From Promethearchaeia archaeon (GTDB lineage: Archaea; Asgardarchaeota; Lokiarchaeia; Sigyniarchaeales; SOKP01), in assembly GCA_029856045.1 (NCBI GenBank), contig JAHQWG010000053.1:1-64000 (forward strand): a stretch of 64,000 nucleotides of DNA. Direction: 5' to 3'. Below, piece by piece: positions 1 through 61,040 of the stretch. Each line of letters begins with the position of its first letter. Position 1 is the stretch's first letter. A program made the position numbers and the translations under genes. The notes under the pieces were generated by a model. It worked only from the letters and a program-made list of their open reading frames with translations. It had not been told where the DNA came from and searched no databases.

Positions 1-952
1 GAACGATACATTGATGACAACTGTTTCAGAGGAAGATTTGATTTTTTTTCTCACTTCAGTTTTATCAAGCGATAATCGTAATTTTACAATCACTCTAGGA
101 ATGAGAATTTGGTGTGAAGATAATTTTTGGTCTGATAGGGATACTTGGAACTCTTTACGTATAAAATCTTGTAATTTAACCTTTACTTATGAGAAAAAGA
201 TAGACCAATTTACAACCGTAGATTATAATCAGATTGGAGATAAAATTACTGGGACGAATGTTCAAATCACATCTGCAAATCTTAAATTTAAATATAAAAT
301 TAATGATACATGGCCTGAATTATCATCTCCAAACTCTGAAATTAGAATATTGATTAATAATAACTCCCATACAGAAACTATTAAATTAAGTTCGGTTAAT
401 AATTCCTTTCAAGAAATAAAACCAGGTGGATATGATGTGTCGTCTTTAATTTTAATAGATATAAATATTTCTCTTTCAATTCAAGTATTTTTAGCAGATG
501 AGTTCGCATTGGATAAGAATTTCTCCATTTCCATCGATGATGTTTACCTTGAAATTTCTTATATTGAAATTATTCCTGATATCTTCGAAGAACCTTGGGT
601 GTTTAGTGCACTTTTAATATTGGCAATTACAGTACTCACTAGTCTGGGTAGTTATTTCATTGTATATCGAAGATACCTTAAATATCCAAAACCTGTAAGA
701 AAAGTACGTAAATTTAGAAAAACATTAAAAAGAAAACACCCCCCTGGGACAGTTTATATCACCAATCGTGAATATGCATTTAAAACAATTCATGAAAAAG
801 AAGTTTCTAAAGCGATTAAAGTAAAGAAGAGTGCAGCCGAAGAAAAACCGATGTCTTCTATTCAAAAAATTATATCTAAATTTAAATCTAAACCTAAAAA
901 AAAGCCATCAATACCAGCAAAGAAACTTATAGCTAAACCTAAATCTCCATAA
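1..952 (+). CDS. C-terminal part of a large membrane-anchored surface glycoprotein (5' end outside the window)
   Basis: Frame open from the window edge; beta-rich ectodomain with N-x-S/T sequons; TM helix WVFSALLILAITVLTSLGSYFIV; YPKPVRK motif; K/P-rich tail that continues in frame past the TAA to 1081. Confidence 0.85.
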   Translation, partial: NDTLMTTVSEEDLIFFLTSVLSSDNRNFTITLGMRIWCEDNFWSDRDTWNSLRIKSCNLTFTYEKKIDQFTTVDYNQIGDKITGTNVQITSANLKFKYKINDTWPELSSPNSEIRILINNNSHTETIKLSSVNNSFQEIKPGGYDVSSLILIDINISLSIQVFLADEFALDKNFSISIDDVYLEISYIEIIPDIFEEPWVFSALLILAITVLTSLGSYFIVYRRYLKYPKPVRKVRKFRKTLKRKHPPGTVYITNREYAFKTIHEKEVSKAIKVKKSAAEEKPMSSIQKIISKFKSKPKKKPSIPAKKLIAKPKSP

Positions 953-1372
953 AAACCACCATCCCCTACCAAAAAACCTATAGTCAAGAAAGAAGAACCA
1001 ATATCTGCTGAAAAAAAATCTAAAAAATTATCTGAAAAATCTGAAAAAACACCAGAAAACCCCACTAATAAGAAACCCTAAATTTATATATGCTATGCAA
1101 AAAAATTATTTTCTTTTTCTTATTTTTAGATTATTCATTATTCGCTTCCCTAATTTTTAAAAATTTGATGTATTGCCCTTAAAAAATAATTTACATAGAC
1201 AAAGACATCTCTAAGAATGAAGTAAAAAGGATAATTCTAAGTAGATTATGAAATAGATTTAATAATCATCCTCTATGATAATTATTATATACCATATTCT
1301 TTAATATATTATTTGCTAATCAATAGTGGTTTTTATTATAAAAATACAAAAAAAGAATAAAGTGAATTTATT

Positions 1373-4300
1373 TTGAAAAAAATTAAAAAATGTAAGAATA
1401 ATAAAATATTAATTCTTGTCAGTTTATTAGTTATATTTTCTCTCAGTTTTGTAATACCTAATGTTAATATGAATAATAATGTATATTTTGATAATGTTGA
1501 CGATAAACTTGAAGGAGATACTCTAAATAATGATTTAAGGTCTCAAAGTTTAACCCTCGATAATAATTATACTGGTGTTGGAGCAGCTTGGAATCTAACC
1601 CATTATGCAAACAGAACAGATACAGATTTGGAAGCAAGTTTCGGGAATGATTCCTACGATATTGTAGAAATCCCATTATTCACTGATTGGCAGGGTTATA
1701 AATTAAACGCAACTATAAATGATTTGTATGATGAGAGAAATTGGAACAATGGAACATTTATTTATGGAAACGACGATGGTAATTATTCATGTCCTGAAGA
1801 TGATTCTGATTATATAAGTAACGCTTATCAAAATTGGACTTTTAATTATAACGATGTAGGCGGGTTTTATAATAATATGAGTGGAAACTATCTTGATACT
1901 TCTGCTCCAACTAGTGGTGGTCATGATAGTTTAGAATTAAGAATAAATGCTGATAGGCGATCAAGTGGTTGGAATAGCTATAATTTAGGAGATATTTGTT
2001 GGTGGAGTAGTTCTATCGAAATTCCTAGAGGCAATATAATTGATAGCATATTGCAATTTGATCTCAATCCTTATTATTTAGCTGATTTCAATTCATGGGA
2101 TTTTTCCATTTCATTAAACAATGAAAAAATATATAGTAAAGGTACATATTCTTTAAAGTTAGAGGCTGGGGGACAAGGAATTTGGCATACATTTACTGTT
2201 CCCCAATCAGTTTGGATAAATCAATCCGTATTTCCTTCCCCTATAAATGATACAACAATTACATTTGAAATAGCTTTAGAATATCTATCAAGTTCAGCAA
2301 GTTATAGCGATGGTTTTGATTATATTGAATATCAACAAATATTTATTGATAATGTAAAATTATTTGCAAAGGCAGAAGTATTACCCTCACAAATTGGGTT
2401 AAAGATGAATGGAACGAATGATGTAAATGATATTAATTCAGAATGGGGGAAAGGAACTAGAGTACTTGAAGGTAATTGGGTAGGAACTGAAGTAAAGGCT
2501 AATTTTAGTAGTAATTCTACTTGTGAATTAAGTAATTATACTATATATTTAAAATCTAATTTAAATCTTTTTGCAATAAGACATACTCCAGATACAAATT
2601 ATATAGAATCTAGCGTTTCAGAAGGCACAAATTTCGAAGTAAGTAATAATAGTATAGTGAACTGGAATTGTGTCGGTTATGTATCCGTTCCAGTAGGGTA
2701 TAAAGAAACAGAAATAAAACTTGAATTTCCAACTGATGTAAATATAACTTGGGTATCGGAACCTCAAAATCCAAATACAAATAAATCATCTTTATGTGAT
2801 AATTCAGCTCAAGGAATTTTAAATATAAATGTCTCTAAATTTTCTGATCCACCAGATGGTTTTTGGAAATTTGAAGCAGTATCACCTAATTATTGTGAAC
2901 AATTCAATATTTTTAATAATGAAACAGGTATATGGCTGCAAGATGATGAATTTCTAAGCGGGGATTATATTAATATTACAGGGAAAATAACGAATAATAC
3001 AATAATCTCTGGATACATACAACAAACTAAAGCATATCTAAATATAAGATTTCCAAACGGCACCATATGGACCAGTAAAACTCAAGAAAAGTCCCCCCTT
3101 GAAGATGGAACTATTTACTTTGATCCTTTTCTAATACCCTCCTCACCTCCCGCTTATGAAGTAGGAGTATATGACGCAATAATTACTTGGAATAACTCTT
3201 ATACTTCTTATGGATTAAATGAAACTGGCGTGATCTATAAAAAATTTACAGTAATTCATAATTCCACTTTAAGTCCAGATGAAAATAAGTATTATTATGA
3301 AGATATTATTGAAGAAACAACTGTAAATTTAAGGGTTCTATTTAATGATAAAATGAATAATGATGCTATAACAAATGCTCATGTATATGTTTATAAATTC
3401 ACCGGTGGAATGCAGAATTTTAGTGAAATAAGTCCTGGTTTATATTTTCTAGAATTCAATGTGATCGGAGCACCGAATGCAGGCAATAATACTTTAACAA
3501 TTTTTGCTAATTCGTCCCTCTTTGTAAATAATAAGATGAATATAACAATCGAAGTAATTAAAGCAACAACTTTTACAGCAGATGAAACTATAATATCTGT
3601 TCCGTGGCGAGATAATTTTACAATCCAATTTAATTTTACTGAACAAAAAACTGGAAATGGTATAACTGCCACTCCTACAAATAATTGGAATGGAGAATCA
3701 CACATAATTATGACAGCTCCGGGAGAATATAGCATAACTTGTAATACTTCTCTTTATGCTGTAAACCAAATCCATTCATTAATTATTAGTGTTGATGAAT
3801 ATGGATATGAACAGCCCCCAGATATATTAGTTAAAATTGAAATAACTGAGAGAAATGCAAACATAGACGAAATTTATTTAAATCAAACGCTTGGTACATT
3901 AATTGTATTTCCTTATGGTGACCTTTTAAATATTACAGCTAAATACAGTGATCAAGCAACAAGCAGTTTTATTAGTGGAGCTACAGTACAATTAAGAGAC
4001 GGTGAGACTATTTTAGATAGTTTTTCAGAAAATCCAACGCTGAAACACTATAATCTTACAATAAATACTACTATTTTAGGAGTCGAAGTTAATCTATTTA
4101 CAATTTATGCCAAACAAGATAATTATACAACCGCGCTGGAAAGTATAATAACATTAATTGAAAGAGAAACTGATTTAACTTTAAAGATCAATGAAACTAA
4201 TATAAGTAATAATGGTGTTTTCGAGCTTCAAGTAAATGAAACCATTAATCTTTTTGTTACTTATAAAGACATGTATACAGGAGATCATATAGACAATGCT

Positions 4301-5734
4301 ACTGTAGAAATAACTGGAGCTGGAATATCAGCAAATTTAACGGAAGATGATGTATTAGAACAGTACAACATAACTTTAAGTGCCGACAATCTGACTAAAG
4401 GATTTAACTTTTTAACGATAATTGCTCAAAAGGAAAATACTAAGCCTCAATCCATATCATTTTCAATTGAATTAATAGAGAGAAAAACAGCAATTAAGTT
4501 ATTCATTAATCAGACTGATATCACAACTAGTAAGACATATGTAATTCAAATAGGAGAGACAATAGATATAATATTTAATTATACAGATGAGACTACAAAT
4601 GAATTTCTTGAAAATGCAACAGTTGAATTAACAGGAGTAAGTATTGTAGCTTATTTAACGGAATATAGTAATTCTTATAAGATAACTATCAGCTCAGTAA
4701 ATTTAACTCAATCAATCAACTTTTTAAAAATTATTGCTGAAAAGAGAAATTATCAACCTCAACCTATTGAATTTAGAATTGATGTAATTGAAAGGCAAAC
4801 ATATACATCATTGTATTTAAATCAATTAAACAAAACTATTGATAAATCAATCGAACTTCCAATAAGTGCTACTTTAAATATTACATTTGGTTATTTTGAT
4901 GATGTTACAAAAGAATTCATTCATGATGCATTAGTACAACTCGTGGGAACGGATTTATTGTTTAATTTCACTGAAGAACCTGCATTAAATCAATATAAAC
5001 TTATTATAAATGCGAGAGATTTAGATTTTGGAATTAAATTTTTAACTTTAGTTGCTGGTAAGACTAATTTTCAATCATCATCAGACCTTTTAAAGATAAC
5101 AGTTAGGCAAATAAAAACTAATATTACAGCAGTATATGGGGACGTTGTAAATATAAGAGTTGGTGGTTCTCATGCCTTAACAATTACTCTATATGATATA
5201 GATAATGAACAATATATAACTAATGCTACTGTAAGATATTCGGGTGACCTAGGGCAAGGAGTATTAATAGAAGATCTAAATAATCCAGGCACATATATTG
5301 CTAATTTTGAGACTTTGGGTCTTGGCAATTATATTATTACAATAACGGTAACTGGTGTAAGTGGAGATTATCTATTCGAAAGCAAGCAAGTAGCAATAAC
5401 CGTCACTTTATCAGAAGAAGAAGCACTATTATTTTTAGGAGGATTAATAGCAGCAATCAGCGCTACCATCGGAATTGGGGGCTATTTCATTGCTTATCAG
5501 AGAGTTCTTAAATATCCAAAGCCTGTTAGAAAGACTCGTAAATACAGGAGAACATTAAGGAAGAAAAAAACACCAAGTGTAGAAATTTTAGGTCGTGAAG
5601 AATCTTTCAAGACACTTCATGGAGAAGGATTGTCTAAAATATCCAAAATCAAGACAAGCAAAACAAAACTAGAAGTACCTCCTATTGATATAAAGACTGA
5701 AGCTAAATTTGTAGAAAAACCTCCATCAACTTAG
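1373..5734 (+). CDS. 1453-aa surface glycoprotein: signal anchor, Ig-like repeats, C-terminal TM and YPKPVRK tail
   Basis: N-terminal basic+hydrophobic signal; many sequons; ~105-aa repeats; TM LLFLGGLIAAISATIGIGGYFIA; TTG start. Confidence 0.9.
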   Translation: MKKIKKCKNNKILILVSLLVIFSLSFVIPNVNMNNNVYFDNVDDKLEGDTLNNDLRSQSLTLDNNYTGVGAAWNLTHYANRTDTDLEASFGNDSYDIVEIPLFTDWQGYKLNATINDLYDERNWNNGTFIYGNDDGNYSCPEDDSDYISNAYQNWTFNYNDVGGFYNNMSGNYLDTSAPTSGGHDSLELRINADRRSSGWNSYNLGDICWWSSSIEIPRGNIIDSILQFDLNPYYLADFNSWDFSISLNNEKIYSKGTYSLKLEAGGQGIWHTFTVPQSVWINQSVFPSPINDTTITFEIALEYLSSSASYSDGFDYIEYQQIFIDNVKLFAKAEVLPSQIGLKMNGTNDVNDINSEWGKGTRVLEGNWVGTEVKANFSSNSTCELSNYTIYLKSNLNLFAIRHTPDTNYIESSVSEGTNFEVSNNSIVNWNCVGYVSVPVGYKETEIKLEFPTDVNITWVSEPQNPNTNKSSLCDNSAQGILNINVSKFSDPPDGFWKFEAVSPNYCEQFNIFNNETGIWLQDDEFLSGDYINITGKITNNTIISGYIQQTKAYLNIRFPNGTIWTSKTQEKSPLEDGTIYFDPFLIPSSPPAYEVGVYDAIITWNNSYTSYGLNETGVIYKKFTVIHNSTLSPDENKYYYEDIIEETTVNLRVLFNDKMNNDAITNAHVYVYKFTGGMQNFSEISPGLYFLEFNVIGAPNAGNNTLTIFANSSLFVNNKMNITIEVIKATTFTADETIISVPWRDNFTIQFNFTEQKTGNGITATPTNNWNGESHIIMTAPGEYSITCNTSLYAVNQIHSLIISVDEYGYEQPPDILVKIEITERNANIDEIYLNQTLGTLIVFPYGDLLNITAKYSDQATSSFISGATVQLRDGETILDSFSENPTLKHYNLTINTTILGVEVNLFTIYAKQDNYTTALESIITLIERETDLTLKINETNISNNGVFELQVNETINLFVTYKDMYTGDHIDNATVEITGAGISANLTEDDVLEQYNITLSADNLTKGFNFLTIIAQKENTKPQSISFSIELIERKTAIKLFINQTDITTSKTYVIQIGETIDIIFNYTDETTNEFLENATVELTGVSIVAYLTEYSNSYKITISSVNLTQSINFLKIIAEKRNYQPQPIEFRIDVIERQTYTSLYLNQLNKTIDKSIELPISATLNITFGYFDDVTKEFIHDALVQLVGTDLLFNFTEEPALNQYKLIINARDLDFGIKFLTLVAGKTNFQSSSDLLKITVRQIKTNITAVYGDVVNIRVGGSHALTITLYDIDNEQYITNATVRYSGDLGQGVLIEDLNNPGTYIANFETLGLGNYIITITVTGVSGDYLFESKQVAITVTLSEEEALLFLGGLIAAISATIGIGGYFIAYQRVLKYPKPVRKTRKYRRTLRKKKTPSVEILGREESFKTLHGEGLSKISKIKTSKTKLEVPPIDIKTEAKFVEKPPST
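3848..5400 (+). repeat. About 5 degenerate ~104-106-aa Ig-like protein repeats
   Basis: Units start ERNAN (3848), ERETD (4160), ERKTA (4478), ERQTY (4790), RQIKT (~5105); shared Y.D..T...I..ATV.L and Y.L.I...L..G.N.L.I.A.K.N patterns. Confidence 0.8.
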
Positions 5735-6051
5735 ACACAACCTGAAATTGAACCTACTAAAAAACCTCCTATTACTGATGAAAAATCAAAAAAAATATCT
5801 TGATATCTCAAAAGAAAAAACATCGGAAAAATCTGCCAAAAAGGATTAATCATTTTATTTTATATTTAATTATATTTTCTTTTTTTCATTTCATATTTTT
5901 TTTTACTTGATATTTTTTTTCTTAGAACTCTAAATAAGATGCAATGTTAGATAGCATAATTAAACACAAATTCTTACAAATCATAGAAAATCTAATTATG
6001 GATTGCAAAATATTATTTAATAAATCAATAATTATAGTGAAATGAAGAAAA

Positions 6052-6816
6052 ATGGATAATTCAAATCGTAATATAATGCCGGGTGCTGGTCCTTTCTATT
6101 TTGAAGGAAATGATATAGGTGTTTTATTATTGCATGGAGGAGGTGGCGGAACTGCAGCCGATTTAAAGCCAATGGCAGAATTTTTACATAATGAAGGAGG
6201 TTTTACTGTAAGAGTTCCGTTGTTATCCGGATTTGGAACAACACCCGAAGAATTAAAAGATACACCGATCTCTGCTTGGATGGAAGATCTTGAAGTTGAA
6301 TATAATTTCTTAAAGCAAAAAGTAAAAAAGATAGTTGTTGGAGGGCATAGTATGGGGGCAATTTTTAGTCTATATTTAGGAGCTACAAAAAATCCAGATG
6401 CAATATTTACCATAAGTGCTCCTATAGGAGTTAAAGGATTCTTACCAAAATTACTTCCGTTAGTAAAATATTTTATTAAATCTTATCCTCTTCCTATAGA
6501 TGAATTTGAAAAAGAAACAGATGGTGCGTGGGTGGGATATGATAAATTTCCTCTAAAAGCTGGAGTGAGACTATTCAAAATAATTAAAGAATTTAAAAAA
6601 TATTATCCGAAAATTACGTGTCCTACTCTATTAATTCAAGGAAGATTAGATAGCGTGATTAAATCCTCGAGCATGGAAGAGATTTATGAAATGTTAATGT
6701 CCGAAAATAAGAGGAAATTATGGCTAGACAACAGCGACCATCCCATATTAAAAATCCCTGACGAGAATTTATTATTTTCTGAAATTTTGAATTTCATGAA
6801 AGAAGTTACAAAATAA
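6052..6816 (+). CDS. Carboxylesterase/monoacylglycerol lipase (alpha/beta hydrolase)
   Basis: LLLHG, GHSMG nucleophile elbow, GRLDSV Asp, SDH His. Confidence 0.9.
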   Translation: MDNSNRNIMPGAGPFYFEGNDIGVLLLHGGGGGTAADLKPMAEFLHNEGGFTVRVPLLSGFGTTPEELKDTPISAWMEDLEVEYNFLKQKVKKIVVGGHSMGAIFSLYLGATKNPDAIFTISAPIGVKGFLPKLLPLVKYFIKSYPLPIDEFEKETDGAWVGYDKFPLKAGVRLFKIIKEFKKYYPKITCPTLLIQGRLDSVIKSSSMEEIYEMLMSENKRKLWLDNSDHPILKIPDENLLFSEILNFMKEVTK

Positions 6817-6820
6817 ATTT

Positions 6821-7483
6821 TTATTTCTCCTTCAGAATTGAATAAATCACATTTAAGTTTAGATCTCTAATACTTTTTAAAATCAAATATGGAACTGATA
6901 TACTCTCTATCAATTTCTCTTTGGTGGTAGTTCCAGTTAAAACCCCAATAAAGGGACAATCAAGCATTTCTGCGACTTTTACATCATTTATATGATCTCC
7001 AATAACAATTATTTGCTTATTAGGAAAATTTTTTTCTAGTATCTTTTTTGTAATTGGGTCGAATTTTTTCTTCCTTTGCTCAGTTTCTCCTAAATATAAA
7101 TCAAAAAAGTTGTCTATTTTTAAAATTTTTAGAATATTATGGACCATTTCATGCTTTTTAGAAGATAATACACCTAAAGAAAAACCACTTTCTTTTAATT
7201 CTTTTAATTTTTTTCTTACACCTTTTATTAGTTTTGACTGATAAATTCCCTTCTTTCTATAAAAATCACGGAAGGCGGATACATATTTTTCAGGAGATTC
7301 ATTAGTTACATCTTTAAACATCTCATATAAAGGAATTCCGATCATTTGCTTTATTATTTTTGGAGGAATTTTCTCTTTTTTATATTTCTCCAACGCATAA
7401 TTGAAGGAGTTAATAATTCCTTTTGTGTTTTTAATGAGAGTATTGTCAAGATCAAAACTTAAATATATTTCGCTAGAGTTCAT
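6821..7483 (-). CDS. HAD-superfamily phosphatase (phosphoglycolate phosphatase-like)
   Basis: FDLDNTL motif I, LSSK motif II, IGDHIND motif IV. Confidence 0.9.
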   Translation of the reverse strand: MNSSEIYLSFDLDNTLIKNTKGIINSFNYALEKYKKEKIPPKIIKQMIGIPLYEMFKDVTNESPEKYVSAFRDFYRKKGIYQSKLIKGVRKKLKELKESGFSLGVLSSKKHEMVHNILKILKIDNFFDLYLGETEQRKKKFDPITKKILEKNFPNKQIIVIGDHINDVKVAEMLDCPFIGVLTGTTTKEKLIESISVPYLILKSIRDLNLNVIYSILKEK

Positions 7484-7599
7484 CGACCGTTCATTTTACT
7501 TGTTTAAAAAATTTGATTTTAAACTTAATTTTAGTAGAATTTAGTTTATTATTGCTATTTATTAAAAGTTTATTTTTATGCCTTGATTTTAATACAATA

Positions 7600-8880
7600 A
7601 TGAAGGTCCATTTTAAATACGGTAAAAATGGGTTAAATGTTGAAATATCTGATAATTTAAACTTTACAATAATAAAAGCACCAGAAGAAAAAGAAATACT
7701 CAATCCTGTGGAAGAAATTAAAGCAAAAATAAATGACCCAATTGGGACTTTACCTTTGAAAGAATTAATTCAACAAAAAGGAAAATTTCATGAAATTTCT
7801 ATCATAATTGTTATTAGTGACGCTACAAGACCGTCTCCTTCTAAAATAATATTAAAAGCTTTAACTGAAATATTTGAAGAAATCGGAATTAGAGATGAAC
7901 AAATAAAAATTTTAATAGCTACAGGCCTTCATAGAGAAAGCAGACAAGATGAACTAGTAAGAATGGTTGGTGATAATTTTCTTAAACGTTTTGAAATTGC
8001 TGACCATAACGCTAATGATGAATCCACTTTAGCTTTTGTTGGCTATAGCAACGATAGAACACCCATTTATTTAAATACATATTATCTCGATTGTGATTTT
8101 AGAATTTTAACAGGCTACGTAGAACCTCACTTTTTTATGGGATTCTCTGGAGGGAGGAAATCGATTATTCCAGGAATAGCTGGAGCAAAAACAATTAAGG
8201 GTAATCACTCTGCCAAAAATATTGCTTCACCGTATGCCCGTTTTGGAATATATAAAGAAAACCCACTCCATATTAATGCGGTTGAAATAGCTAAGAGAGT
8301 TGGCGTAGATTTTATAATTAATGTATGTATCAATGAAAATCATAATATAACTCAAATAGCCGCTGGAGATCTTGAAAAAGCCCACGAAGCTCTAGTAAAA
8401 TATCAATTAAAACAGGTATTTCAAAAGGTTAATGTGCTATATGACATAGTTATTTGCGGGAATGGAGGCTTCCCGTTAGATTTGAACCTTTATCAAGCAG
8501 TCAAAAGCATGGCTCTAGGTGAGATGGCTGTAAAGAAAGGGGGAATTATTATATCTGTAAATGAATTATCCGATGGAATAGGGCATGATAAATTTAGGGA
8601 ACTAATTTTTTGTGGAAGATCTCCAAAAGAAATCTATAATGATATTATAAATGAAAAAATTAAAGTGGTTGATCAATGGGAAATACAAATATTAACTCGA
8701 ATCTTACAAAAAGCTGAAATAATTGTTGTTTCTCAATTATCAAAAGATGAGGTTGGAAATATAGGTTTAATCCATTCAAATTCAGTTGAAGAAGCAATCG
8801 AAATGGCATTGAAAAAAATTGGACCTAATGCAAAAATACTTGTATTACCAGATGGACCAATTGTTTTACCAAAATTATAA
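7600..8880 (+). CDS. larA: Nickel-pincer-dependent lactate/2-hydroxyacid racemase
   Basis: SDATRP, ATGLHR, VEPHFFMGFSGGRKS, GNH, LNLYQAVK motifs; likely true start is ATG at 7600 (MKVHFKYG). Confidence 0.9.
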   Translation: MKVHFKYGKNGLNVEISDNLNFTIIKAPEEKEILNPVEEIKAKINDPIGTLPLKELIQQKGKFHEISIIIVISDATRPSPSKIILKALTEIFEEIGIRDEQIKILIATGLHRESRQDELVRMVGDNFLKRFEIADHNANDESTLAFVGYSNDRTPIYLNTYYLDCDFRILTGYVEPHFFMGFSGGRKSIIPGIAGAKTIKGNHSAKNIASPYARFGIYKENPLHINAVEIAKRVGVDFIINVCINENHNITQIAAGDLEKAHEALVKYQLKQVFQKVNVLYDIVICGNGGFPLDLNLYQAVKSMALGEMAVKKGGIIISVNELSDGIGHDKFRELIFCGRSPKEIYNDIINEKIKVVDQWEIQILTRILQKAEIIVVSQLSKDEVGNIGLIHSNSVEEAIEMALKKIGPNAKILVLPDGPIVLPKL

Positions 8881-8980
8881 ATTCTCTTAATTGTAATTTT
8901 AATTAAATTTTAATATCTTACACATTAAGAAGCATTATAATCCCAAATAATATAGAAGAACAAATCTTTAGTGTAATTTT

Positions 8981-10714
8981 TTGATTGGATCATACTCAAA
9001 TATTTCAGAGGATATTTATCAACAACTAAAAAATATCGTGGGAGATGAATTTATCTCAAAAGATCTTGAAATATTATGGTGTTATGCATTTGATGGTACT
9101 ATGTTTAAAGAAAATACAGTCCCAGAAATCGTAATTTTACCTAAAAATAAAGATGAAATATCTGAAATTTTAAAAATAGCTAATAAAAATAAAATCATCA
9201 TTATTCCAAGAGGAAACGGAACAAGTTTAACTGGTGGCCCTATATCTATTTTTGGTGGTGGAATTATACTTGATTTGAGCAGAATGAATAAAATTCTCTC
9301 AATTGATATTCCAAATAATCTTACAGTGGTTGAACCCGGTGTAATTTGTGATGATCTTAATTTTGAATTGAATAAATATGAATATTTCTTTCCACCAGAC
9401 CCGGCTTCGAGCTGTATTTGCACAATAGGAGGGATGGTTGCCAATAATTCAGGTGGAGTTCAGGCATTTAAATATGGCGTAACCAAAGATTATGTAATAT
9501 TTCTAGAAGTTGTTCTTGCTGATGGACAAATAATAAATATTGGTTCTTTAGTTAGAAAATCAGTATCATCCTATAATTTCACTGGATTATTTGTTGGTTC
9601 TGAAGGCACCCTTGGAGTTATTACTAAAATTGGGCTTAAAATAATCCCCTTACCTAAATCTAGGAAAATGGGGCTTTTTATATTTGATTCAATTGAATCA
9701 ATCGTCCAAGCAGTTATTGAGTTAAGAAAAAATGGAATCATTCCAAACTTACTCGAATTTATGGATGAAACCACAACTAAAGCAAGCTTTGAATATCTTG
9801 GCGGAGAATTTCTTTCTTATCCTAAAGGAATTGTATTATTAGCGGAAGTCGATGGTAATAAAACACAAGTTGATTCTGATTTTGCAAAATTATTTAAAAT
9901 TATAATGAAATATAACCCAAAATTTCATAAAATAGCAGAATCTGATAAGGAAAGAGAAGTTTTATTAAACGCAAGGAAAGCAGCGCTACCAGCTCTCTCA
10001 AGAATTAAACCATCATGTTGTATAGAAGATTGTACAGTTTCAATCGAAAAATTCGCTAAATGTGTTCAAAAGATTAAGAAAATTACCGAAGAATTAGAAT
10101 TGGATAATATAGAGATTGCTAATTTCGGACATATGGATGGAAATATGCACCCAACATTTTTATTTAATGAGAACAATGAATTTGATCGTAAATCACTATT
10201 AGTAGCTATGAAATACTTATATGAAAAAATTGTGATACCATTAGGGGGAACAATTACCGGCGAACATGGAGTTGGTTCTATTAAAACTCCTTTTCTCAAA
10301 CTAGAATATGATAAAGAAACTTTAAATCTAATGAGAGGGATTAAACTTTTTTTTGATCCCAATATGATTCTTAACCCAGGTAAAGGAAAAGGAGACCCTC
10401 GGATAATAAAAAATAATATATTGAATAGAAAGTTAAAAATTCCAGGAGATTTAGCTTTATCTTGTATGAGGTGCGGATTCTGTATCCCACTATGCCCATC
10501 AAAAGATTATTATAAATTCGAAGCATATACCCCAAGAGGGAGATTAAATATATTAAATGGATTAGTTCATGGAGATTTAAAATTATCAGAGAAAATCAAT
10601 GAAATTTTGCATACTTGCATTCTTTGTGGTGCATGTTCTGTATTGTGCCCTGCAGGAGTGAAAACTTATGAAATCTTTGAGAAAGCCAGAGAATTAATAC
10701 ATAAAAAAACTTAA
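8981..10714 (+). CDS. FAD-linked 2-hydroxyacid (D-lactate/glycolate) dehydrogenase fused to a 2x[4Fe-4S] domain
   Basis: PRGNGTS, PPDPAS, GSEGTLG, GEHGVG, NPGK; C-terminal CMRCGFC..LCP and CILCGAC..LCP. Confidence 0.9.
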   Translation: MIGSYSNISEDIYQQLKNIVGDEFISKDLEILWCYAFDGTMFKENTVPEIVILPKNKDEISEILKIANKNKIIIIPRGNGTSLTGGPISIFGGGIILDLSRMNKILSIDIPNNLTVVEPGVICDDLNFELNKYEYFFPPDPASSCICTIGGMVANNSGGVQAFKYGVTKDYVIFLEVVLADGQIINIGSLVRKSVSSYNFTGLFVGSEGTLGVITKIGLKIIPLPKSRKMGLFIFDSIESIVQAVIELRKNGIIPNLLEFMDETTTKASFEYLGGEFLSYPKGIVLLAEVDGNKTQVDSDFAKLFKIIMKYNPKFHKIAESDKEREVLLNARKAALPALSRIKPSCCIEDCTVSIEKFAKCVQKIKKITEELELDNIEIANFGHMDGNMHPTFLFNENNEFDRKSLLVAMKYLYEKIVIPLGGTITGEHGVGSIKTPFLKLEYDKETLNLMRGIKLFFDPNMILNPGKGKGDPRIIKNNILNRKLKIPGDLALSCMRCGFCIPLCPSKDYYKFEAYTPRGRLNILNGLVHGDLKLSEKINEILHTCILCGACSVLCPAGVKTYEIFEKARELIHKKT

Positions 10715-10779
10715 ATTGTTTTATCCCCCAAATACAAAACATTAATAAATTTGAAAATTTAATTTAGAAATGAATATTC

Positions 10780-13458
10780 TTGGAAAAACGTTTAATTATA
10801 AAACTGAGTGCATCCGTTGTAGGCATGCTCTTATTAAGTGCTTTCTTAATAACTCCAATTGGAATTTTGCCAGGGTTAGGTAGTCTTTTATCTCCTATTG
10901 GAGGAATTTGGAATGGACCAAATTACGCAGAATACCCTTCAATGAAAGAAGTTAGAGGGACAGGATATAGTGGAACTGTATATAGAGATGAATTAGGAAT
11001 TCCACATATATTTACCTCGGGTCAAAACGACTTATCTTATATTATCGGTTATTTACAAGCAATTGATCGATTATTTAGTATGGACATGCAGAAAAGAGTA
11101 ATTACTGGCAGGGTCTCAGAGATATTGGGATCAAATAGCCTTGAAATGGACAAGTACTATAGATTATTAGGGTTTGCGCGAAGCGCTGAGGAACTATGGA
11201 ATAAAATAGAAGAAGATGCCCAATCGGACCTTGAATTACTATTGTTAATAGATTCTATGCGAGCTTATTGTGCAGGGGTAAATAGATACATCGATGAGAT
11301 CACTCCAAATAACCTCCCACTAGAATATATACTCTTAGGCCTACAGCCAGAATATTGGACGGTTTTGGACATTTTGACATTTGTGAAATATGAATCCTGG
11401 GCATTGACCTATAGTGAATTTGATATTGCAATGACCATCATTAGAGATGCCATGGGAGACGATATACCACCTGAATTAGTCCCCTATGAGCCATTTCCAT
11501 TTGAAAAAGTAGTAGTTCCTAATTTCAAGGATAATACATCTGGTGGTATTCCCAAACCTAAAAGTTCTGCAATGGGAAATGGTGGTGGTTTTAGCCAGAG
11601 TAGTTTAGAAAAAATCCCTGAATTAAAAGAAGATTTACAAGGGATTTTTAACCTATTTCAGAATTTCAACCTTTTTGGATTGAAGGATCAAATAATTCAA
11701 GCTTGTTCAAATAATTGGGTGATAAATGGAAGTCTGTCATACTCAGGAAAACCGATCTTGTGTAACGATCCTCATTTTCAATTAATTTTACCATCGGTCT
11801 TGTGGGAGTTTCATTTCGTTAATACATCAGAAAATTTTTACAATAGTCTTTATGGTGTTGCATTTCCGGGTGCTCCTTCTGCGGTAATGGGTCACACAGC
11901 TTACATTTCTTGGGGTATGACCAATAGTTTCTACGATCAAAATGATTTCTATCTTGAAAAATTAAATAATGAAGGTACAAAATATATCTTCAATAACACG
12001 GAACGAGATATAGAAACCGTCACAGAATTAATAAAAATAAAAGGACAATCGGACTATAATTATGAAATTAAATTCACGCGACATAACTGGACTGAACAAG
12101 ATAATTTCAAGTGCCCGATAATCAATTCAACGGAATTTGGTTATCCTGGAAATCTAAACATTTCAATAAAGTGGCCAGGGTATGCACCAGATTACGGTAT
12201 ATTAAAAGGTTTTTATAGGCTTAATAACGCGAAGAATATAAATGATTTTATAGAAGCAATGAGAGTATATGGCTGTCCTGGGTTAAATTTTATTTATGCG
12301 GACGTGGAAGGAAACATAGCCATCTATCCAAAGGGTAATTATCCAGTTAGAAATGCAACGGGAGTTGTCAAGGAAGGTAGATATATAATGAATGGTAGTA
12401 ATGGAGAGGATGAATGGACTGGCTATATTCCGTTTGATTGGATCCCGCATAAAATAAACCCTCCAGATCAGATGTATCTAGCTTCAGCGAATCAACGAAC
12501 TGTGAACACAACTGAATATACAAAGTATTATACCTCATATGGTTTTGTGAATTCTTATAGAAGCCGGAGAATTAATCAGTTATTAGAAAATGAATCGTAT
12601 TATCACAAGACATTTGGCACGAACATTACGATTGAAAAAATGAAAAAGTTTCAGACGGATTATTATGATATTGCGGCGGAGGTTTTTGTCCCCATTTTAC
12701 TTGAGACCCTTAAAAACGCCTATCCCACTGGAGTACCAGCTACAGGTGAAACTGAATTATTGTACATGTCAATCGAAGCTTTAAAGGCTTGGAATGAAAG
12801 TGATGCTCGATGGATAATGGATAAAGACCTCATAGCACCGACGATTTTCAATGTATGGCTGGAAATTTATCAAAATTTCACCTTTTTAGACGAGTTCGAA
12901 GATGCTAATGTCAATATTGGTGGAAGAGTGGCATATCTAACAGATTATCTCGAGTATTTAACAAGGTATAATCAGACTTCAAAATGGTTCGATAGTATTT
13001 CCACATCAGGAACAACTGAAAATGCTTCAATGATTATGTTGATGGCATTGAATGAAACAATGGAAGTATTAAGTACTGATTTTGAAAACTTCAACGATTG
13101 GTTATGGAGAAATTTTCACATAATGGACATTCAATATTTACAGGGACTGGTACCAGCGTTTAATATGCCGAAATATGGTTGTTCGGGTAGTTCAAGAACA
13201 TTGAATGTGGCATCTGGATATTTTATCCATTCTGGACCATGTATGAGGTTGATCGTAGATTTTGAAAAATTAGTAAATCAAGAACTCTATAGCGGATATA
13301 TATCTATTCCTGGTGGTCAATCTGGTAATCCTCTGAGCTCGCATTATGATGATAATTATCAAATCTGGAAGAACAATGATTATTATCAAATATTATTTCC
13401 GCGAAATATAAGTGCATATCCCTTAAATAAAATATATTCAACCGTGATTTTCAGTTAA
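10780..13458 (+). CDS. Membrane-anchored penicillin acylase family Ntn-hydrolase
   Basis: RDELGIPHI, SNNW nucleophile, NDPH, ASANQR, PGGQSGNP; N-terminal TM. Confidence 0.92.
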   Translation: MEKRLIIKLSASVVGMLLLSAFLITPIGILPGLGSLLSPIGGIWNGPNYAEYPSMKEVRGTGYSGTVYRDELGIPHIFTSGQNDLSYIIGYLQAIDRLFSMDMQKRVITGRVSEILGSNSLEMDKYYRLLGFARSAEELWNKIEEDAQSDLELLLLIDSMRAYCAGVNRYIDEITPNNLPLEYILLGLQPEYWTVLDILTFVKYESWALTYSEFDIAMTIIRDAMGDDIPPELVPYEPFPFEKVVVPNFKDNTSGGIPKPKSSAMGNGGGFSQSSLEKIPELKEDLQGIFNLFQNFNLFGLKDQIIQACSNNWVINGSLSYSGKPILCNDPHFQLILPSVLWEFHFVNTSENFYNSLYGVAFPGAPSAVMGHTAYISWGMTNSFYDQNDFYLEKLNNEGTKYIFNNTERDIETVTELIKIKGQSDYNYEIKFTRHNWTEQDNFKCPIINSTEFGYPGNLNISIKWPGYAPDYGILKGFYRLNNAKNINDFIEAMRVYGCPGLNFIYADVEGNIAIYPKGNYPVRNATGVVKEGRYIMNGSNGEDEWTGYIPFDWIPHKINPPDQMYLASANQRTVNTTEYTKYYTSYGFVNSYRSRRINQLLENESYYHKTFGTNITIEKMKKFQTDYYDIAAEVFVPILLETLKNAYPTGVPATGETELLYMSIEALKAWNESDARWIMDKDLIAPTIFNVWLEIYQNFTFLDEFEDANVNIGGRVAYLTDYLEYLTRYNQTSKWFDSISTSGTTENASMIMLMALNETMEVLSTDFENFNDWLWRNFHIMDIQYLQGLVPAFNMPKYGCSGSSRTLNVASGYFIHSGPCMRLIVDFEKLVNQELYSGYISIPGGQSGNPLSSHYDDNYQIWKNNDYYQILFPRNISAYPLNKIYSTVIFS

Positions 13459-13472
13459 TGGAGAGTGTTTAA

Positions 13473-13877
13473 ATGAGTATCGTTACTGGTATAAAAGAAT
13501 TATTTTATTCAGAGAATGTTTTTATAGGATTTATCATTGCATTTGTACTTGCACTTTATTTAGAAATAACTGGTGTATATTTATTAATGCTTTTGGTTGG
13601 TGGCGTTGCAGGATTTTTTGTAAAAAGGGGATGGCTCAGTTTCATCATTGGGTTTATGAGTGTGGCTTTAGCATGGGGAATATATTTCATATTTTTCGCA
13701 TTCATTGGACCATTAGGAGAGTTTTTTATCCTGATTGGTTCGATAATTGGGATATCTGGAGTAATTTTAATGATATTATCCTTAATAATAGGGGGATTAT
13801 TAGGTGGAATCGGAGCACTCGTTGGAGCTTACACCACACAATTAATTTTAGGAGATAAATACATTAGAAAATCATAA
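13473..13877 (+). CDS. Small Gly-rich 4-TM membrane protein
   Basis: Hydrophobic helices; 14 bp downstream of the acylase. Confidence 0.8.
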   Translation: MSIVTGIKELFYSENVFIGFIIAFVLALYLEITGVYLLMLLVGGVAGFFVKRGWLSFIIGFMSVALAWGIYFIFFAFIGPLGEFFILIGSIIGISGVILMILSLIIGGLLGGIGALVGAYTTQLILGDKYIRKS

Positions 13878-13884
13878 AATTTGG

Positions 13885-13959
13885 GATTTTCGGAGCGAAC
13901 TTCCGACTACTTTGATTGGTAAGGTTTTAAAAAGAGCGCTAGGGGAAGAAGCAAAATAA
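13885..13959 (+). pseudogene. C-terminal remnant of an AMP-forming acyl-CoA ligase
   Basis: Manual translation DFRSELPTTLIGKVLKRALGEEAK* matches the A10 motif (ELPxTxxGKVL); no upstream coding part. Confidence 0.7.
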
Positions 13960-14132
13960 TATTCCAAATCATTGTAATCTTTTAAAATTTTCATATAAAA
14001 ATTTCTAAAAGATAAAAATTTGACAACACACAAAGTTCATAAGATTTATCCATGTTCGGATAATCAGCTGAACTAATTCATAAAAACTTTAAATATATCA
14101 CATGGGTTTTTATTTATTTCTTATTCTAGATT

Positions 14133-14600
14133 TTATCTTTTTTTTCTCGCTCTCATCTTTGTTTTCTCTATAAATTCAAGGCAAACCCCTAATACCTCTG
14201 TTGTATCAAAATAGTCCCATTTTAGATTGGCAAATTGACTCGCATTAACGGATTGAAATCCCATTTCTTTCATTTTGGTTGAATATGATTCTAGATTCTC
14301 AATATATACACCATAATGATGTAATCCTTCTTTTCCTTGCTCAATAAATTCCTTATAAATACAATCTCCATCAACCCATTGGATTAATTCTAACTCTAAC
14401 ATGCCCAATTGGCTAAATCCTGCCTTAATATCAACTATAGTGCGTTTATCTCGAAATTGGGTATCCAGATTTGGAACGTTTATAATTTGAAATTTTGGTA
14501 AACCTAGGATTTCTTCCATTAATTTAGATTGTTTTTCAATATTTTTATAAACATATCCCAATTGTCCAATTTTAAGTTCAGAAAATTTTATCTCTACCAA
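14133..14600 (-). CDS. VOC/glyoxalase family protein (methylmalonyl-CoA epimerase-like)
   Basis: QLGYV, LELELIQ, EGLHHYG, LEFIE. Confidence 0.85.
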   Translation of the reverse strand: MVEIKFSELKIGQLGYVYKNIEKQSKLMEEILGLPKFQIINVPNLDTQFRDKRTIVDIKAGFSQLGMLELELIQWVDGDCIYKEFIEQGKEGLHHYGVYIENLESYSTKMKEMGFQSVNASQFANLKWDYFDTTEVLGVCLEFIEKTKMRARKKR

Positions 14601-14732
14601 ATAGTTGTCACCAAATAAATTTTAATATTTTAATTTAGATCTTTAGAATTTTGTTTTTAAATATTATTTCAATTATTAATTTAATATAATAACTTTGGTT
14701 ATTTTTAAGAAATCGTTATCTTAAGAACGATC

Positions 14733-15623
14733 ATGATTTGGAAAACCCGTATAAATCAAATGACAAAAACAAAATATCCTGTAATTATGGGGGCATTTGT
14801 AGGATTAGGTAAAGCAGATTTTGCTGCTCCATTTTCTGAAGCTGGTGGTTTGGGAATTATCACTGCCTTAAATTTTAAAACTCCTAACCGCTTTAAACAA
14901 GAACTGGCACATATGAAAGAATTGACAGAAAAACCATTCGGTGTAAATTTTTCTGTAGTCCCACCCCAAGTAAAAGGAGGATTTCACTTAACAGAAAACT
15001 CAAAACGTAATTATTTATCGTATGTTGAGATTGCGTTAGTAGAAGGAGTAAAAATTTTTACAACTTCAGCTTATCAAGCAACATTTATTGGAGAGAGATT
15101 ACATGAAGCAGGATGCTATTGGTTTCATAAATCTGCTACGATAAGACATGCCATAAGCGCAGAAAGGGCTGGTGCAGATGCGGTCACAATTGTTGGATTA
15201 GAAGGAACAGGTTTTAAAAATCCTCTTACCCAAACAACCTTGGTAAATATTACAATGGCAAGAAGGTTACTTAAAATCCCAATAATTGCAGCAGGAGGTA
15301 TCGGTGATGCGAGAGGATTTTTGGGGGCTCTAGCAATGGGCGCAGAAGCCGCTTGTTTTGGAACAGCAGTTATGGTATGCGAAGAAAGTCCTGCAGCATT
15401 AAAACTGAAAGAAAAATGGATAAATGAAGATATTTTTACGGAGGATTACCACCAAAAGATTTATCATCTTAAATTGAGAGATACAGTTCTTCCTTCAATG
15501 GCAATCGGTCATCGAAAGAAAATAATAACAATCAAGGAGTTTATTGAAGAAATTATGAATGAATCAGAAGTGATATTAAGATCTTGGGGATTCACTGCAG
15601 AAGAGTTTAATACAATTTTCTAA
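14733..15623 (+). CDS. Nitronate monooxygenase/FabK-like FMN oxidoreductase
   Basis: SEAGGLGII, KPFGVN, IAAGGIGDARG, GAEAACFGT. Confidence 0.88.
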   Translation: MIWKTRINQMTKTKYPVIMGAFVGLGKADFAAPFSEAGGLGIITALNFKTPNRFKQELAHMKELTEKPFGVNFSVVPPQVKGGFHLTENSKRNYLSYVEIALVEGVKIFTTSAYQATFIGERLHEAGCYWFHKSATIRHAISAERAGADAVTIVGLEGTGFKNPLTQTTLVNITMARRLLKIPIIAAGGIGDARGFLGALAMGAEAACFGTAVMVCEESPAALKLKEKWINEDIFTEDYHQKIYHLKLRDTVLPSMAIGHRKKIITIKEFIEEIMNESEVILRSWGFTAEEFNTIF

Positions 15624-15731
15624 ACGTTAAACTATATAATTCTTTATTTTTTCTACGAATTCCTGAAAGTATTTAATAAAATTTTTCCTACCAAAAATTT
15701 TTAAAATAAAAATTGATCTTTAACAATAGAT

Positions 15732-16250
15732 ATGTCATCACCTCCCCCTCCACAAACTCCTAATTCAAGAAGATCTCGGAGATTTGAAACCAGAGAATTA
15801 GTTGAAATAATAAGAAATGCGATGGAAATATATGACGATCAATGGGAACAAGAATCCATTTCAATTAGAGCAGTTCCCAGATATCAAGAGGATTATAACA
15901 AACTTACAGTAGAAGAAAAGGAAAAATTTCATGAATTCTTAGAATTGGGTTCGATTTGTCCAATTTGTAAAGCTAAAAATCATGTAAATTATTTAAAAAA
16001 ATTTTATTTTAATAAAAAACCTGATAAAATAAATCTAAAAAATAGTTTATTGAAATTAATGGAACGATCTAAAGATTCTAGTAAAAATATCTCAATTGGA
16101 ATACCTTGCTGTAGCTGTTATAGAAAAGTTTTCAATCAGAATAAATCTAATTTAACTATATCACTGAATAGATCGAATTCACGTATGCGATTGATAACAA
16201 TTCAACTTCCTGAGGAATATATAAATTCATTAGATAGGTTAGTTCGATAA
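15732..16250 (+). CDS. CxxC...CCxC zinc-binding protein ending in half of a ribbon-helix-helix motif
   Basis: CPIC and CCSC; C-terminus MRLITIQLPEEYINSLDRLVR; N-terminal PPPPP. Confidence 0.65.
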   Translation: MSSPPPPQTPNSRRSRRFETRELVEIIRNAMEIYDDQWEQESISIRAVPRYQEDYNKLTVEEKEKFHEFLELGSICPICKAKNHVNYLKKFYFNKKPDKINLKNSLLKLMERSKDSSKNISIGIPCCSCYRKVFNQNKSNLTISLNRSNSRMRLITIQLPEEYINSLDRLVR

Positions 16251-16303
16251 AACAATATCAATTTTAAGATCTAATATGGGTTAGAAAAAGTATTGAAAAT
16301 AAA

Positions 16304-17770
16304 TTAATTACAATCTGTCCTTTTTTGACCGTATTCATATAAGGCTAAATATGATTTTGCGGCCCTTTGAATTGTTGGATATACTAAAAAATCATTTTCC
16401 TTAAGCTTTTTGTAGAATATTTGCCGATCCTCATCAGGATATTCATGTAAAATTATTATCAGGATTTTATTAAGAGAACGCACATAATCCTTAATTCTAA
16501 TTAAATTTTTAAAATAGCCTTGGAACCACTGTCCACCAAATTTTCCCGGCGTATCTGTTTCTATTATTACCAAATCTATGTTTTCTGAAATGGCAACCTT
16601 GGAAATTTCATAAAATGCGTCTATATATGTAATCCATGGTAAATCTAACGGATTAGAATAGGATCCTACCTTTATAGGATAAATTTCTATCAATTTTTCT
16701 TTTATTTTTCCTTCAAATAGCGGCATATTTAAACCTAATTTGGTTAAGCTATCTGTAGCAAGAATCCCGAAACCTCCAGACCATAAAATAACCAAGGTAT
16801 TCTTTCCCTTAGGAAATATGAGTTCTTTATTCAATTTTTCTTGATTTCTTTTATCACTAAAAAAATGATTGAACATGTAAGCATAATCAATCATTTGTTC
16901 TAAGGATGTTTCTACCTCAATTGTTGGTGTTTGTTTAATAATAGCATCCCAAATATTCTGTTTTGTCGCAATTGAACCGGTATGACTTAAAACTGCGGTC
17001 TTAGAACGTTTTGTTGTCCCTCCATTCATAAATAATACGGGTTTTTTCATGTGTTTTAGAACATGGAATAACTTTTTTCCTTCTTCTCTGTGAAATCTTG
17101 AAAATCCTTCGAAATATACGCAAATTATATCTGTTTCTTCATCCTGATTGTAATATTCTAAAATATCAGACATTTGCAAATCTACACAATTTCCTATACT
17201 AGCGCCTTTAGAAAATTTAAGACCATATCTTAGAAAACCAAATTTTATGAGTTTAGTATGTAGATCACCTGAATGGAAAACACTTGCGATATTACCACTT
17301 TCAATTGGGAATAAAAAATGATAAGCATTATGACCCTTAGGGCAATAAACCCCCATACAGTTGGGACCAATTGCTCGCGTATTTATTTCCTTATTATCTA
17401 AAATTTTTTTTATTTCTTCTTCGATTTGACTTCCAATTTCATCAGATTCCCCTGTACCAGCTGTGAATATATGGAAAAAATTTACCTTTTTAATACTTAA
17501 AATTTTTTTTATAGTCTGAACAAGTTTTTCTCTCCTAACTGCTAATATGAAAAGATCAATAGTGTCTGCAGGAACTTCTTCAATTGTTTTATAACACTTT
17601 ATATCATAAATCTCTGTTTCTGTAGGAGAAATTAAGTAGAGATTCTCTTTCTTAAATCCTTGTTTGTTTAGACCTTTAATAAAGTAACTTAATTTATATT
17701 TTGCTTCAAAAATAGCAATATTTCTTGGTTTGAACAAAAAGTCTAGTGATTTAAGTTCTTTATTATTCAT
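16304..17770 (-). CDS. ADP-forming acyl-CoA synthetase alpha-subunit-like CoA-binding protein
   Basis: IGPNCMG, SIGN..D, SHTGS phospho-His, SGGFG, NPLD. Confidence 0.87.
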   Translation of the reverse strand: MNNKELKSLDFLFKPRNIAIFEAKYKLSYFIKGLNKQGFKKENLYLISPTETEIYDIKCYKTIEEVPADTIDLFILAVRREKLVQTIKKILSIKKVNFFHIFTAGTGESDEIGSQIEEEIKKILDNKEINTRAIGPNCMGVYCPKGHNAYHFLFPIESGNIASVFHSGDLHTKLIKFGFLRYGLKFSKGASIGNCVDLQMSDILEYYNQDEETDIICVYFEGFSRFHREEGKKLFHVLKHMKKPVLFMNGGTTKRSKTAVLSHTGSIATKQNIWDAIIKQTPTIEVETSLEQMIDYAYMFNHFFSDKRNQEKLNKELIFPKGKNTLVILWSGGFGILATDSLTKLGLNMPLFEGKIKEKLIEIYPIKVGSYSNPLDLPWITYIDAFYEISKVAISENIDLVIIETDTPGKFGGQWFQGYFKNLIRIKDYVRSLNKILIIILHEYPDEDRQIFYKKLKENDFLVYPTIQRAAKSYLALYEYGQKRTDCN

Positions 17771-58076: not shown

Positions 58077-58089
58077 CTTATAATTTTAC

Positions 58090-59100: not shown

Positions 59101-59132
59101 GTTTTACACTTTCGTTTTTACTACAGTAAATT

Positions 59133-59160
59133 AAAAAAAAAAAAGAAAACAGCTAGTTTT
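59133..59160 (-). terminator. U-rich terminator-like tract between dnaK and dnaJ
   Basis: Minus strand reads TTTTC then T12 (59144-59133), ~20 nt after the dnaK stop. Confidence 0.55.
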
Positions 59161-59164
59161 AAAC

Positions 59165-60997: not shown

Positions 60998-61040
60998 TCT
61001 ATATCACTTCTTTTTATATATTTTATTCTTATTTTAATTT

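Follow-up and report, generated by a model that had tools for sequence, protein, structure and literature searches.

The window analysed here, the first 64,000 nucleotides (nt) of contig JAHQWG010000053.1 (assembly GCA_029856045.1) of a Promethearchaeia archaeon, opens with two tandem open reading frames, ORF1 and ORF2, encoding surface proteins whose ectodomains differ but whose C-terminal parts carry the same element: a transmembrane (TM) helix directly followed by a conserved cytoplasmic tail of ~47 residues with the motif YPKPVRK, here called the module. We consider it fairly probable that the module is an uncleaved docking tail, which holds a longin protein (LNG) under the membrane and leaves its longin domain free to act as a platform where other longins and small GTPases would meet it. 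The conservation and cytoplasmic topology of the module, its gene coupling and fusion to LNG, and the folds of the proteins were all established by computation. The genome is Lokiarchaeal, and the same order includes P. syntrophicum and Harpocratesius.

Two Surface Proteins with a Common Tail

The original prediction, made from the letters of the window, had read a common TM helix and YPKPVRK tail in both ORFs, and they were found where it had placed them, with the Tyr at nt 683 and 5513. ORF1 and ORF2 are identical at 17/23 positions of the core, 27/44 of the module and 8/22 of the TM helix. The local alignment of the two tails scored 169, against 38.7 ± 6.7 for shuffled sequences (maximum 77 in 5000); for the ectodomains the score was 57 against 49.6 ± 6.4, which is chance level, and in BLASTP the TM-tail segment was the sole match between the two proteins (48% over 104 amino acids (aa), E 3e-23).

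Module proteins have a mean net charge of −1.8 before the TM helix and of +7.1 after it, and N-glycosylation sequons fall across it from 3.4 to 0.29 per 100 aa; the ORF2 ectodomain bears 54 sequons, its tail none. Because of this charge bias and sequon distribution, the tail was placed in the cytoplasm rather than outside the cell. The same topology fits the double-module proteins, in which the tail runs straight into a second TM helix and ectodomain.

The ORF1 of a near-identical strain (L213, with 22 mismatches over 6949 nt) extends to at least 1012 aa (L213:2-3040) and reads head-TM-module-TM-head-TM-module; by this comparison, ORF1 is the back half of a double-module fusion and no simple single-TM protein. 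Its missing 5' part was not found by a search of the genome's own contigs. Tandem double-module fusions number more than 20 across Lokiarchaeia. Both ORFs stop prematurely within low-complexity tails (950-1081 and 5732-5849), where the remnant downstream is in frame for ORF1 and frameshifted for ORF2. The TAG stop of ORF2 is present also in the independent assembly L213 and is, therefore, no assembly error; read-through of this stop was rejected because of the frameshift in the remnant. The distal tail is thus dispensable, whereas the module is kept.

The Module Family

The search of Asgard genomes with a profile of the TM helix and tail, which the original prediction had proposed, revealed a widespread module. 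Five copies were found in this genome, two in the window, one on contig C36 and two divergent ones on contig C46; a three-seed iterative search of the genome misses both C46 paralogues, and a pan-Asgard profile finds all five. Module-bearing proteins are 5 of the ~35 predicted surface glycoproteins of this genome. The module profile matches 39 of 41 close genomes and, once broadened, 143 of 201 Asgard genomes, with up to 10 matches each in ORFs of up to 6208 aa; all matches in protein collections that bear a taxon name are from Asgard archaea.

The pan-Asgard pattern consists of the TM helix, an aromatic residue, five or six residues, a hydrophobic-Pro pair, an amphipathic basic helix (9–10 Lys/Arg in 16 residues, hydrophobic moment 0.58–0.67), a linker, an Arg and a second helix. 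Pro alone is invariant, and two Arg are at least 90% conserved. Across Asgard, F, I, V, M or L can stand in place of the Tyr of YPKP, so that the suggested conserved modification site is not borne out; moreover, neither Tyr lies in the interface predicted below.

When the 75 proteins of the ectodomain class of ORF1 are compared with ORF1 itself, the 22-aa core shows 63% identity and the ectodomain 50%, against 45% for the whole module, 32% for the TM helix and 21% for the distal tail. The claim that the motif is better conserved than the ectodomains thus holds within this class for the core, but not for the whole module, and what distinguishes the module is its sharing across classes.

Pfam and NCBIfam searches with both ORFs and with the module alignments matched no family, and a PDB sequence search with the module profile gave a best E of 0.24, that is, chance. 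DUF4129, suspected from structural neighbours, was rejected, with no Pfam match. Loki-CTERM (NF033507) and PGF-CTERM resemble the module proteins in having a C-terminal TM helix followed by basic residues on Asgard or archaeal surface proteins; however, in the CTERM signals the motif precedes the TM helix and the protein ends soon after, whereas in the module it follows the TM helix, spans ~47 residues and can be internal. PGF-type tails are cleaved (PMC6098224). None of 31 modules matches Loki-CTERM above the cut-off, though six other genes of this genome do. The module is followed by a median of 43 further residues, and internal copies exist, which lie within fusions and as many as hundreds of residues before the C-terminus. 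An already described sorting signal was thus not recognised, and the idea of a modular cytoplasmic docking element common to different ectodomains is supported.

The tails beyond the module vary. The C46 paralogues (L002:8801-13249 and 14847-17477, both on the minus strand) carry at their ends acidic tandem repeats of Glu and Pro in which Tyr-Pro-Glu units recur, in contrast to the basic tails of the window ORFs. The start of contig C15 is 77% identical to one C46 paralogue, suggesting a further copy cut by the contig end. Tails from other Asgard classes add a further domain behind the module, either a second conserved helical one or a helix-hairpin-helix (L063, L065, L068, L076, L078, L079, P0351). 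In P0062/L016, of the same genus, the module tail is in frame with a homologue of the alpha/beta-hydrolase encoded at 6052-6816 of the window, a possible fusion or assembly artefact.

A Longin Protein Coupled to the Module

Three other module genes of this genome abut LNG genes: on C36 a 375-aa LNG gene begins directly after the stop codon of the module gene (stop-to-ATG gap 0), and on C46 each module gene overlaps an LNG gene by one base (gaps −1 and −1). LNG genes stand upstream of, downstream of or divergent from the module gene in the Loki, Hel, Odin, Atabeya and other lineages. In an independent set, 21 of 39 LNG genes, all co-oriented, lie within 1.5 kb of a module ORF, where 0.4 would be expected, and in the closed genomes of P. 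syntrophicum MK-D1 (6 modules, 5 LNGs) and Harpocratesius (3 and 3) every module is linked to an LNG. Moreover, the 19 long homologues of LNG all have the order ectodomain-TM-module-~30 aa-LNG, which is found also in L108; these fusions probably stem from one fusion event.

By genome, in the named set, 13 have both genes, 1 has LNG only and 35 have neither, one of the 35 showing a borderline match with an internal stop; by family, 15 have both, 9 neither and 3 are discordant, although kin are not independent. Neither gene was found in the 12 Hodarchaeales, 2 Heimdallarchaeum and 2 Borrarchaeum genomes searched.

LNG has ~370–420 aa and a predicted fold of a longin domain plus two winged helices. 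Residues 1–139 form the longin fold, closest to chains of FLCN complexes (Z 11.7–11.9) and to Lst4 (11.7), then to a GATOR1 chain (Z 10.8) and to C9orf72-SMCR8 (10.7), and also like AP and coatomer subunits and the receptor of the signal recognition particle (SRP; Z 8–9.3). The winged helices match ArsR-type regulators (Z 9.5, root-mean-square deviation (rmsd) 2.2, 81 residues aligned). Structure-atlas matches of LNG to NPR2 span its whole length; Pfam NPR2 itself is not matched. A GP motif before strand 2 marks the longins that are catalytic GTPase-activating proteins (GAPs) (PMC12290439). Among the 44 LNGs listed, the Gly is conserved and the Pro present in 2, and no conserved Arg is seen by sequence alignment in the strand 4-5 loop; thus, LNG seems to be no catalytic GAP longin.

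Predicted Complex of Tail and LNG

The complex modelling proposed for the tail was run on the paralogous C36 pair, where tail and LNG scored 0.69 and the best of 3 controls 0.31. The mark used was reached by 58 of 80 solved complexes and by 2 of 110 mismatched pairs, rates which hold only roughly for the alignments used here. The C36 runs share at least 92% of contacts, and the partner has a predicted local distance difference test (pLDDT) value of at least 72. In the model, the conserved tail Arg (Arg40) contacts LNG Asp217, which is invariant, and Pro341 and Tyr343 of a Pro-Glu-Tyr motif, while tail Leu22 and Ile26 pack on Ala362, Ile363 and Leu366 in the conserved C-terminal helices. The predicted interface thus lies at the winged-helix end and, with no longin residue named in it, the longin domain would stay free. 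It consists of a hydrophobic helix face and one Arg-Asp contact, which does not agree with the basic-cluster mechanism of the ERM/CD44 type that had been suggested.

Within LNG, conservation is higher at the interface than elsewhere (0.62 vs 0.54, permutation p 0.018), and the four close LNGs of this genome all keep the Asp and the F-x-P-E/K motif. The model supports binding of the tail to LNG, which we regard as likely. Among the partners that the original prediction had named, linkage, fusion, co-occurrence and the complex model all point to a longin-fold protein as the predicted partner.

Ectodomains

The membrane-proximal ectodomains fall mainly into a repeat-stalk class (173) and head A (74), plus minor ones. 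The view that ORF1 and ORF2 have different ectodomains stands insofar as no pairwise alignment was obtained and several classes exist; at profile level, however, one jelly-roll is distantly shared. In fact, the juxtamembrane domain of ORF1 aligns with residues ~220–335 of ORF2 (probability 80, E 1.4e-5), and by this profile match head A and head B, the heads of ORF1 and ORF2, appear to share one distantly related jelly-roll. The head-A half of ORF1 is 61% identical to the C36 paralogue, and head A is found on long stalks too; head B is conserved as far as Odinarchaeum and other classes.

The predicted fold of the ORF2 head (pLDDT 89.5) consists of beta-sandwiches, and in structure comparison its jelly-roll resembles carbohydrate-binding, MAM and reelin domains (Z 11.6); a structure-atlas search with the head gave a best lead of 0.75. 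As modelled, the heads look like adhesin- or lectin-like folds, a fold alone giving neither ligand nor function. The heads may bind glycans or surfaces, adhesion being suggested here only by the ectodomain folds. The top Foldseek matches are S-layer proteins, with a TM-score of only 0.13, and DSAG12_03149 and DSAG12_03150 are absent from the top-10 protein table of MK-D1. L. ossiferum is without an ordered S-layer (PMC9834061).

The Window Locus and Its Neighbourhood

The sequenced part of the window locus holds no LNG. A fourth close LNG of this genome is encoded at C16:4855-6099 on the minus strand, ~500 nt from the end of a 6.6 kb contig that has no module gene and carries also a gene for a protein with a TrmB helix-turn-helix (HTH) and a coiled coil (L225, C16:2592-4832, minus strand). 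In relatives, YPKPVRK arrays are divergent from a 415–430-aa LNG, the subtype to which the C16 LNG belongs, and from such a TrmB-HTH/coiled-coil gene; in genome G004, genes downstream of an array of this kind are syntenic with 6052-17770 of the window. By exclusion and synteny, the C16 LNG is likely to be the window's own partner, and C16 would lie upstream of the window.

The TrmB HTH of this Lokiarchaeal LNG neighbour was recognised with E 1.3e-6, and among these loci a TrmB-type protein turned up in Lokiarchaeia alone, where it accompanies LNG as an HTH plus a long coiled coil with an unannotated C-terminal domain (L001:9859-11337). Between LNG and the TrmB-type gene, this genus has a ~545-aa Ras-family GTPase with a roadblock-like N-terminus recognised by eye (L089:8526-12033; L216:7767-9401; L224:13213-14847); in this genome its orthologue is elsewhere (C51:80703-82346). 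In MK-D1, two operons of the order module > LNG run on into a ~290-aa gene, with a divergent actin-like gene behind it (L217:7581-8726, plus strand, and L218:5273-6358, minus strand; E 7e-35 and 2e-27). These are the only actin-like genes at the 73 loci fetched. In two genera, genes of ~350–775 aa downstream of module arrays have an N-terminus that is gelsolin-like by eye, with no Pfam match (L091:5775-8532, minus strand; L093:16518-19264, plus strand; L094; L097), and these loci also hold a ~145-aa longin/roadblock-like gene. Annotation of the recurring neighbours at the loci, to which it was confined, brought out no ESCRT or coat gene.

The features of the window are collected in Table 1. 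A promoter and terminator scan, based on a bacterial model, gave results at shuffle level.

Table 1. Features of ORF1, ORF2 and other genes, in window coordinates.
Feature	Position	Strand	Remarks
ORF1, 5'-truncated surface protein: head-A ectodomain, TM helix, module; 316 aa	2..952	+	C-terminal unit of a double-module fusion
ORF1 juxtamembrane ectodomain: beta-rich C-terminal half of head A	2..580	+	
ORF1 TM helix, ending in a conserved interfacial Tyr	596..667	+	
ORF1 cytoplasmic module	668..811	+	Invariant Pro 686-688, amphipathic basic helix, linker, conserved Arg 767-769, second helix
ORF1 low-complexity K/P/S tail	812..952	+	TAA at end looks premature
In-frame K/P/E-rich remnant of ORF1 tail beyond the stop	953..1081	+	
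ORF2, type I surface glycoprotein: head B, immunoglobulin (Ig)-like stalk, TM helix, module; 1453 aa	1373..5734	+	
Hydrophobic segment at the N-terminus of ORF2 (signal peptide or signal anchor)	1406..1462	+	
ORF2 jelly-roll domain, fold like carbohydrate-binding modules, MAM and reelin	1733..2374	+	Z 11.6, rmsd 2.8-3.5, 139-152 aligned
ORF2 macroglobulin (MG)-like beta-sandwich pair	2888..3562	+	
ORF2 stalk of ~104-106-aa repeats, at least four clear units	3563..5407	+	Ig-like, to judge from Big_1/CarboxypepD_reg matches of homologues
ORF2 TM helix	5423..5497	+	
ORF2 cytoplasmic module	5498..5638	+	Invariant Pro 5516-5518, conserved Arg 5594-5596
ORF2 low-complexity tail	5639..5734	+	Ended by TAG where a close homologue (P0345) has Glu
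Decayed, frameshifted remnant of ORF2 distal tail	5735..5849	+	
Ordinary genes: alpha/beta hydrolase, HAD hydrolase, lactate racemase, FAD-linked oxidase-like (by eye), penicillin amidase family	6052-13458		
ClpB-like and DnaK-like genes, by N-terminal sequence	55467-61718	-	

Comparison with Known Systems

LNG shares the longin fold with NPRL2/NPRL3 (GATOR1), FLCN/FNIP (Lst7/Lst4) and C9orf72/SMCR8. It is alike to NPRL2 in having longin and winged helices and a similar length, and the W-D after strand 1 of C9orf72 occurs also in many LNGs; it differs from the GAP longins NPRL2, FLCN and SMCR8 in that the GP motif is mostly absent and no conserved arginine finger is seen by alignment. LNG further differs from these longin complexes by its predicted binding to, or fusion behind, a single-pass surface protein, of which we know no case among the NPRL2/3, FLCN/FNIP and C9orf72/SMCR8 complexes. 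The accessible text of Liu et al. (bioRxiv 10.1101/2020.10.19.343400) describes an NPRL2-like Asgard family with a longin and a small C-terminal domain, reported from most Thor and a few Loki genomes and tied to two-component signalling; that text mentions no surface-protein link, tail motif or fusion, and LNG may be or include this family.

In eukaryotic adhesion receptors such as CD44/ICAM-ERM, integrin-talin and cadherin-catenin, a variable ectodomain and a single TM helix are joined to a short conserved tail which recruits one adaptor. The module resembles these tails in logic only. As in CD44 and ICAMs, a basic cluster lies juxtamembrane in the cytoplasm (net +7 after the TM helix), but the module tail has no sequence match in PDB or Pfam, and the eukaryotic adaptors are FERM or armadillo proteins, whereas LNG is a longin/winged-helix protein and a general actin link is unsupported. 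The module and LNG are thus an Asgard tail-adaptor pair, analogous in logic to eukaryotic receptor-adaptor pairs and not homologous to them.

Proposed Mechanism and Alternatives

We propose that the module acts as an uncleaved cytoplasmic docking element, in which the first amphipathic helix and the conserved Arg opening the second helix would bind the winged-helix and C-terminal helical end of LNG. LNG would thereby be held under the membrane, below a family of glycosylated surface proteins whose carbohydrate-binding-like heads sit on stalks that vary in length. The free longin domain would most likely be a platform that recruits longin/roadblock partners and small GTPases, and these would place, cluster or signal from the surface proteins; given binding, the chances of such an output are, in our estimate, a little short of even.

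Several observations weigh against this proposal. The complex modelled is that of the C36 pair and not one between the C16 LNG and the window tails; C16 and C54 share no contig overlap, and the link between C16 and the window comes from exclusion and synteny rather than from assembly. The same kind of model test is passed by 7 of 44 blindly picked neighbours. In Freyarchaeum and in one Jordarchaeales genome, a single LNG is unlinked to the 3–4 module genes, and in one genome with an LNG no module was detected. Genes for small GTPases are close to the module in some lineages only, not at most loci, and Asgard genomes contain many GTPases.

The tail could instead anchor the adhesins to the Lokiactin cytoskeleton, directly or via LNG, as an integrin- or CD44-like coupling used in crawling. 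Asgard cells do crawl by actin-filled protrusions and carry complex surface proteins (PMC13716822, PMC9834061); the basic juxtamembrane helix, the adhesin-like heads, the MK-D1 operons and the gelsolin-like genes after some arrays would fit with this. However, LNG has no actin-binding fold, the actin-like neighbour occurs in only 2 of 73 loci, and module and LNG were not found in the 12 Hodarchaeales genomes, although a Hodarchaeal species crawls; on these last two grounds we think a general adhesion-cytoskeleton clutch unlikely, and the cytoskeleton link put forward in the original prediction is not supported as a general one. The ArsR-like winged helices, the TrmB-HTH neighbour of Lokiarchaea and the divergent layout, which is like that of regulator-target pairs, would suit a different role, in which the tail sequesters LNG as a DNA-binding regulator to be released or activated on a surface signal, in the manner of anti-sigma factors or ToxR and aided by the TrmB-HTH protein. 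Nevertheless, winged helices are also carried by NPRL2/3, 19 covalent fusions would prevent release, the number of LNGs, close to one for each module locus, speaks for a stoichiometric partner and the TrmB protein is at the loci only in Lokiarchaeia, so that this role seems quite unlikely.

Longin subunits of AP and COPI coats bind cargo tails, and the module could likewise be a biogenesis or sorting tag, with LNG as a chaperone or cargo adaptor engaged transiently during insertion, delivery to protrusions or vesicle packaging. This partly overlaps with the docking mechanism, and the translational coupling of module and LNG, the fold shared with AP, coatomer subunits and the SRP receptor and the presence of the tag on only five surface glycoproteins are in its favour. 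We hold it, nevertheless, to be distinctly improbable, as the model puts the tail on the winged-helix end and not on the longin domain, the fusions are permanent and ESCRT or coat genes were not among the annotated recurring neighbours. The basic amphipathic character of the first helix would fit, finally, a lipid-binding stop-transfer helix or a cleaved sortase-type signal with no protein partner. Such a reading, to which we give hardly any weight, leaves linkage, fusion, co-occurrence and the distal conserved Arg unexplained, and it has to contend with the missing Loki-CTERM match, with modules lying inside fusions far from the C-terminus and with a PF09721 search of this genome that found no archaeosortase or exosortase (other processing enzymes were not searched).

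Significance

No description of the tail or of its LNG coupling was found in the literature searched, outside which most subscription journals lie. In its widest form, the proposal of a docking tail for LNG would make this a widespread, probably ancient Asgard receptor-adaptor system, in which shuffled glycan-binding surface proteins use one tail and an NPRL2/C9orf72-like longin adaptor to bring small-GTPase machinery, and in some lineages actin-like machinery, to contact sites; we find this wide form rather doubtful. The apparent absence from Hodarchaeales and Heimdallarchaeum limits any claim of direct eukaryotic inheritance, and, if the proposal is true, lineages without the system (Hodarchaeales, Heimdallarchaeaceae) may use directly fused longin tails.

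In their accessible text, the crawling papers invoke regulated adhesion and name no molecule. The module and LNG offer a candidate link between the Asgard surface and the interior, with a defined tail, an adaptor and two residues to mutate; a ~50-residue peptide and a 375-residue protein are enough to study it in vitro. In P. syntrophicum MK-D1, a cultured species, the pair is DSAG12_03149 with DSAG12_03152, with a module gene between them. The pairing also suggests what an Asgard longin family of NPRL2-like build may do in the cell and, if true, would imply a membrane-anchored origin for the eukaryotic longin complexes that act as GAPs or guanine nucleotide exchange factors.

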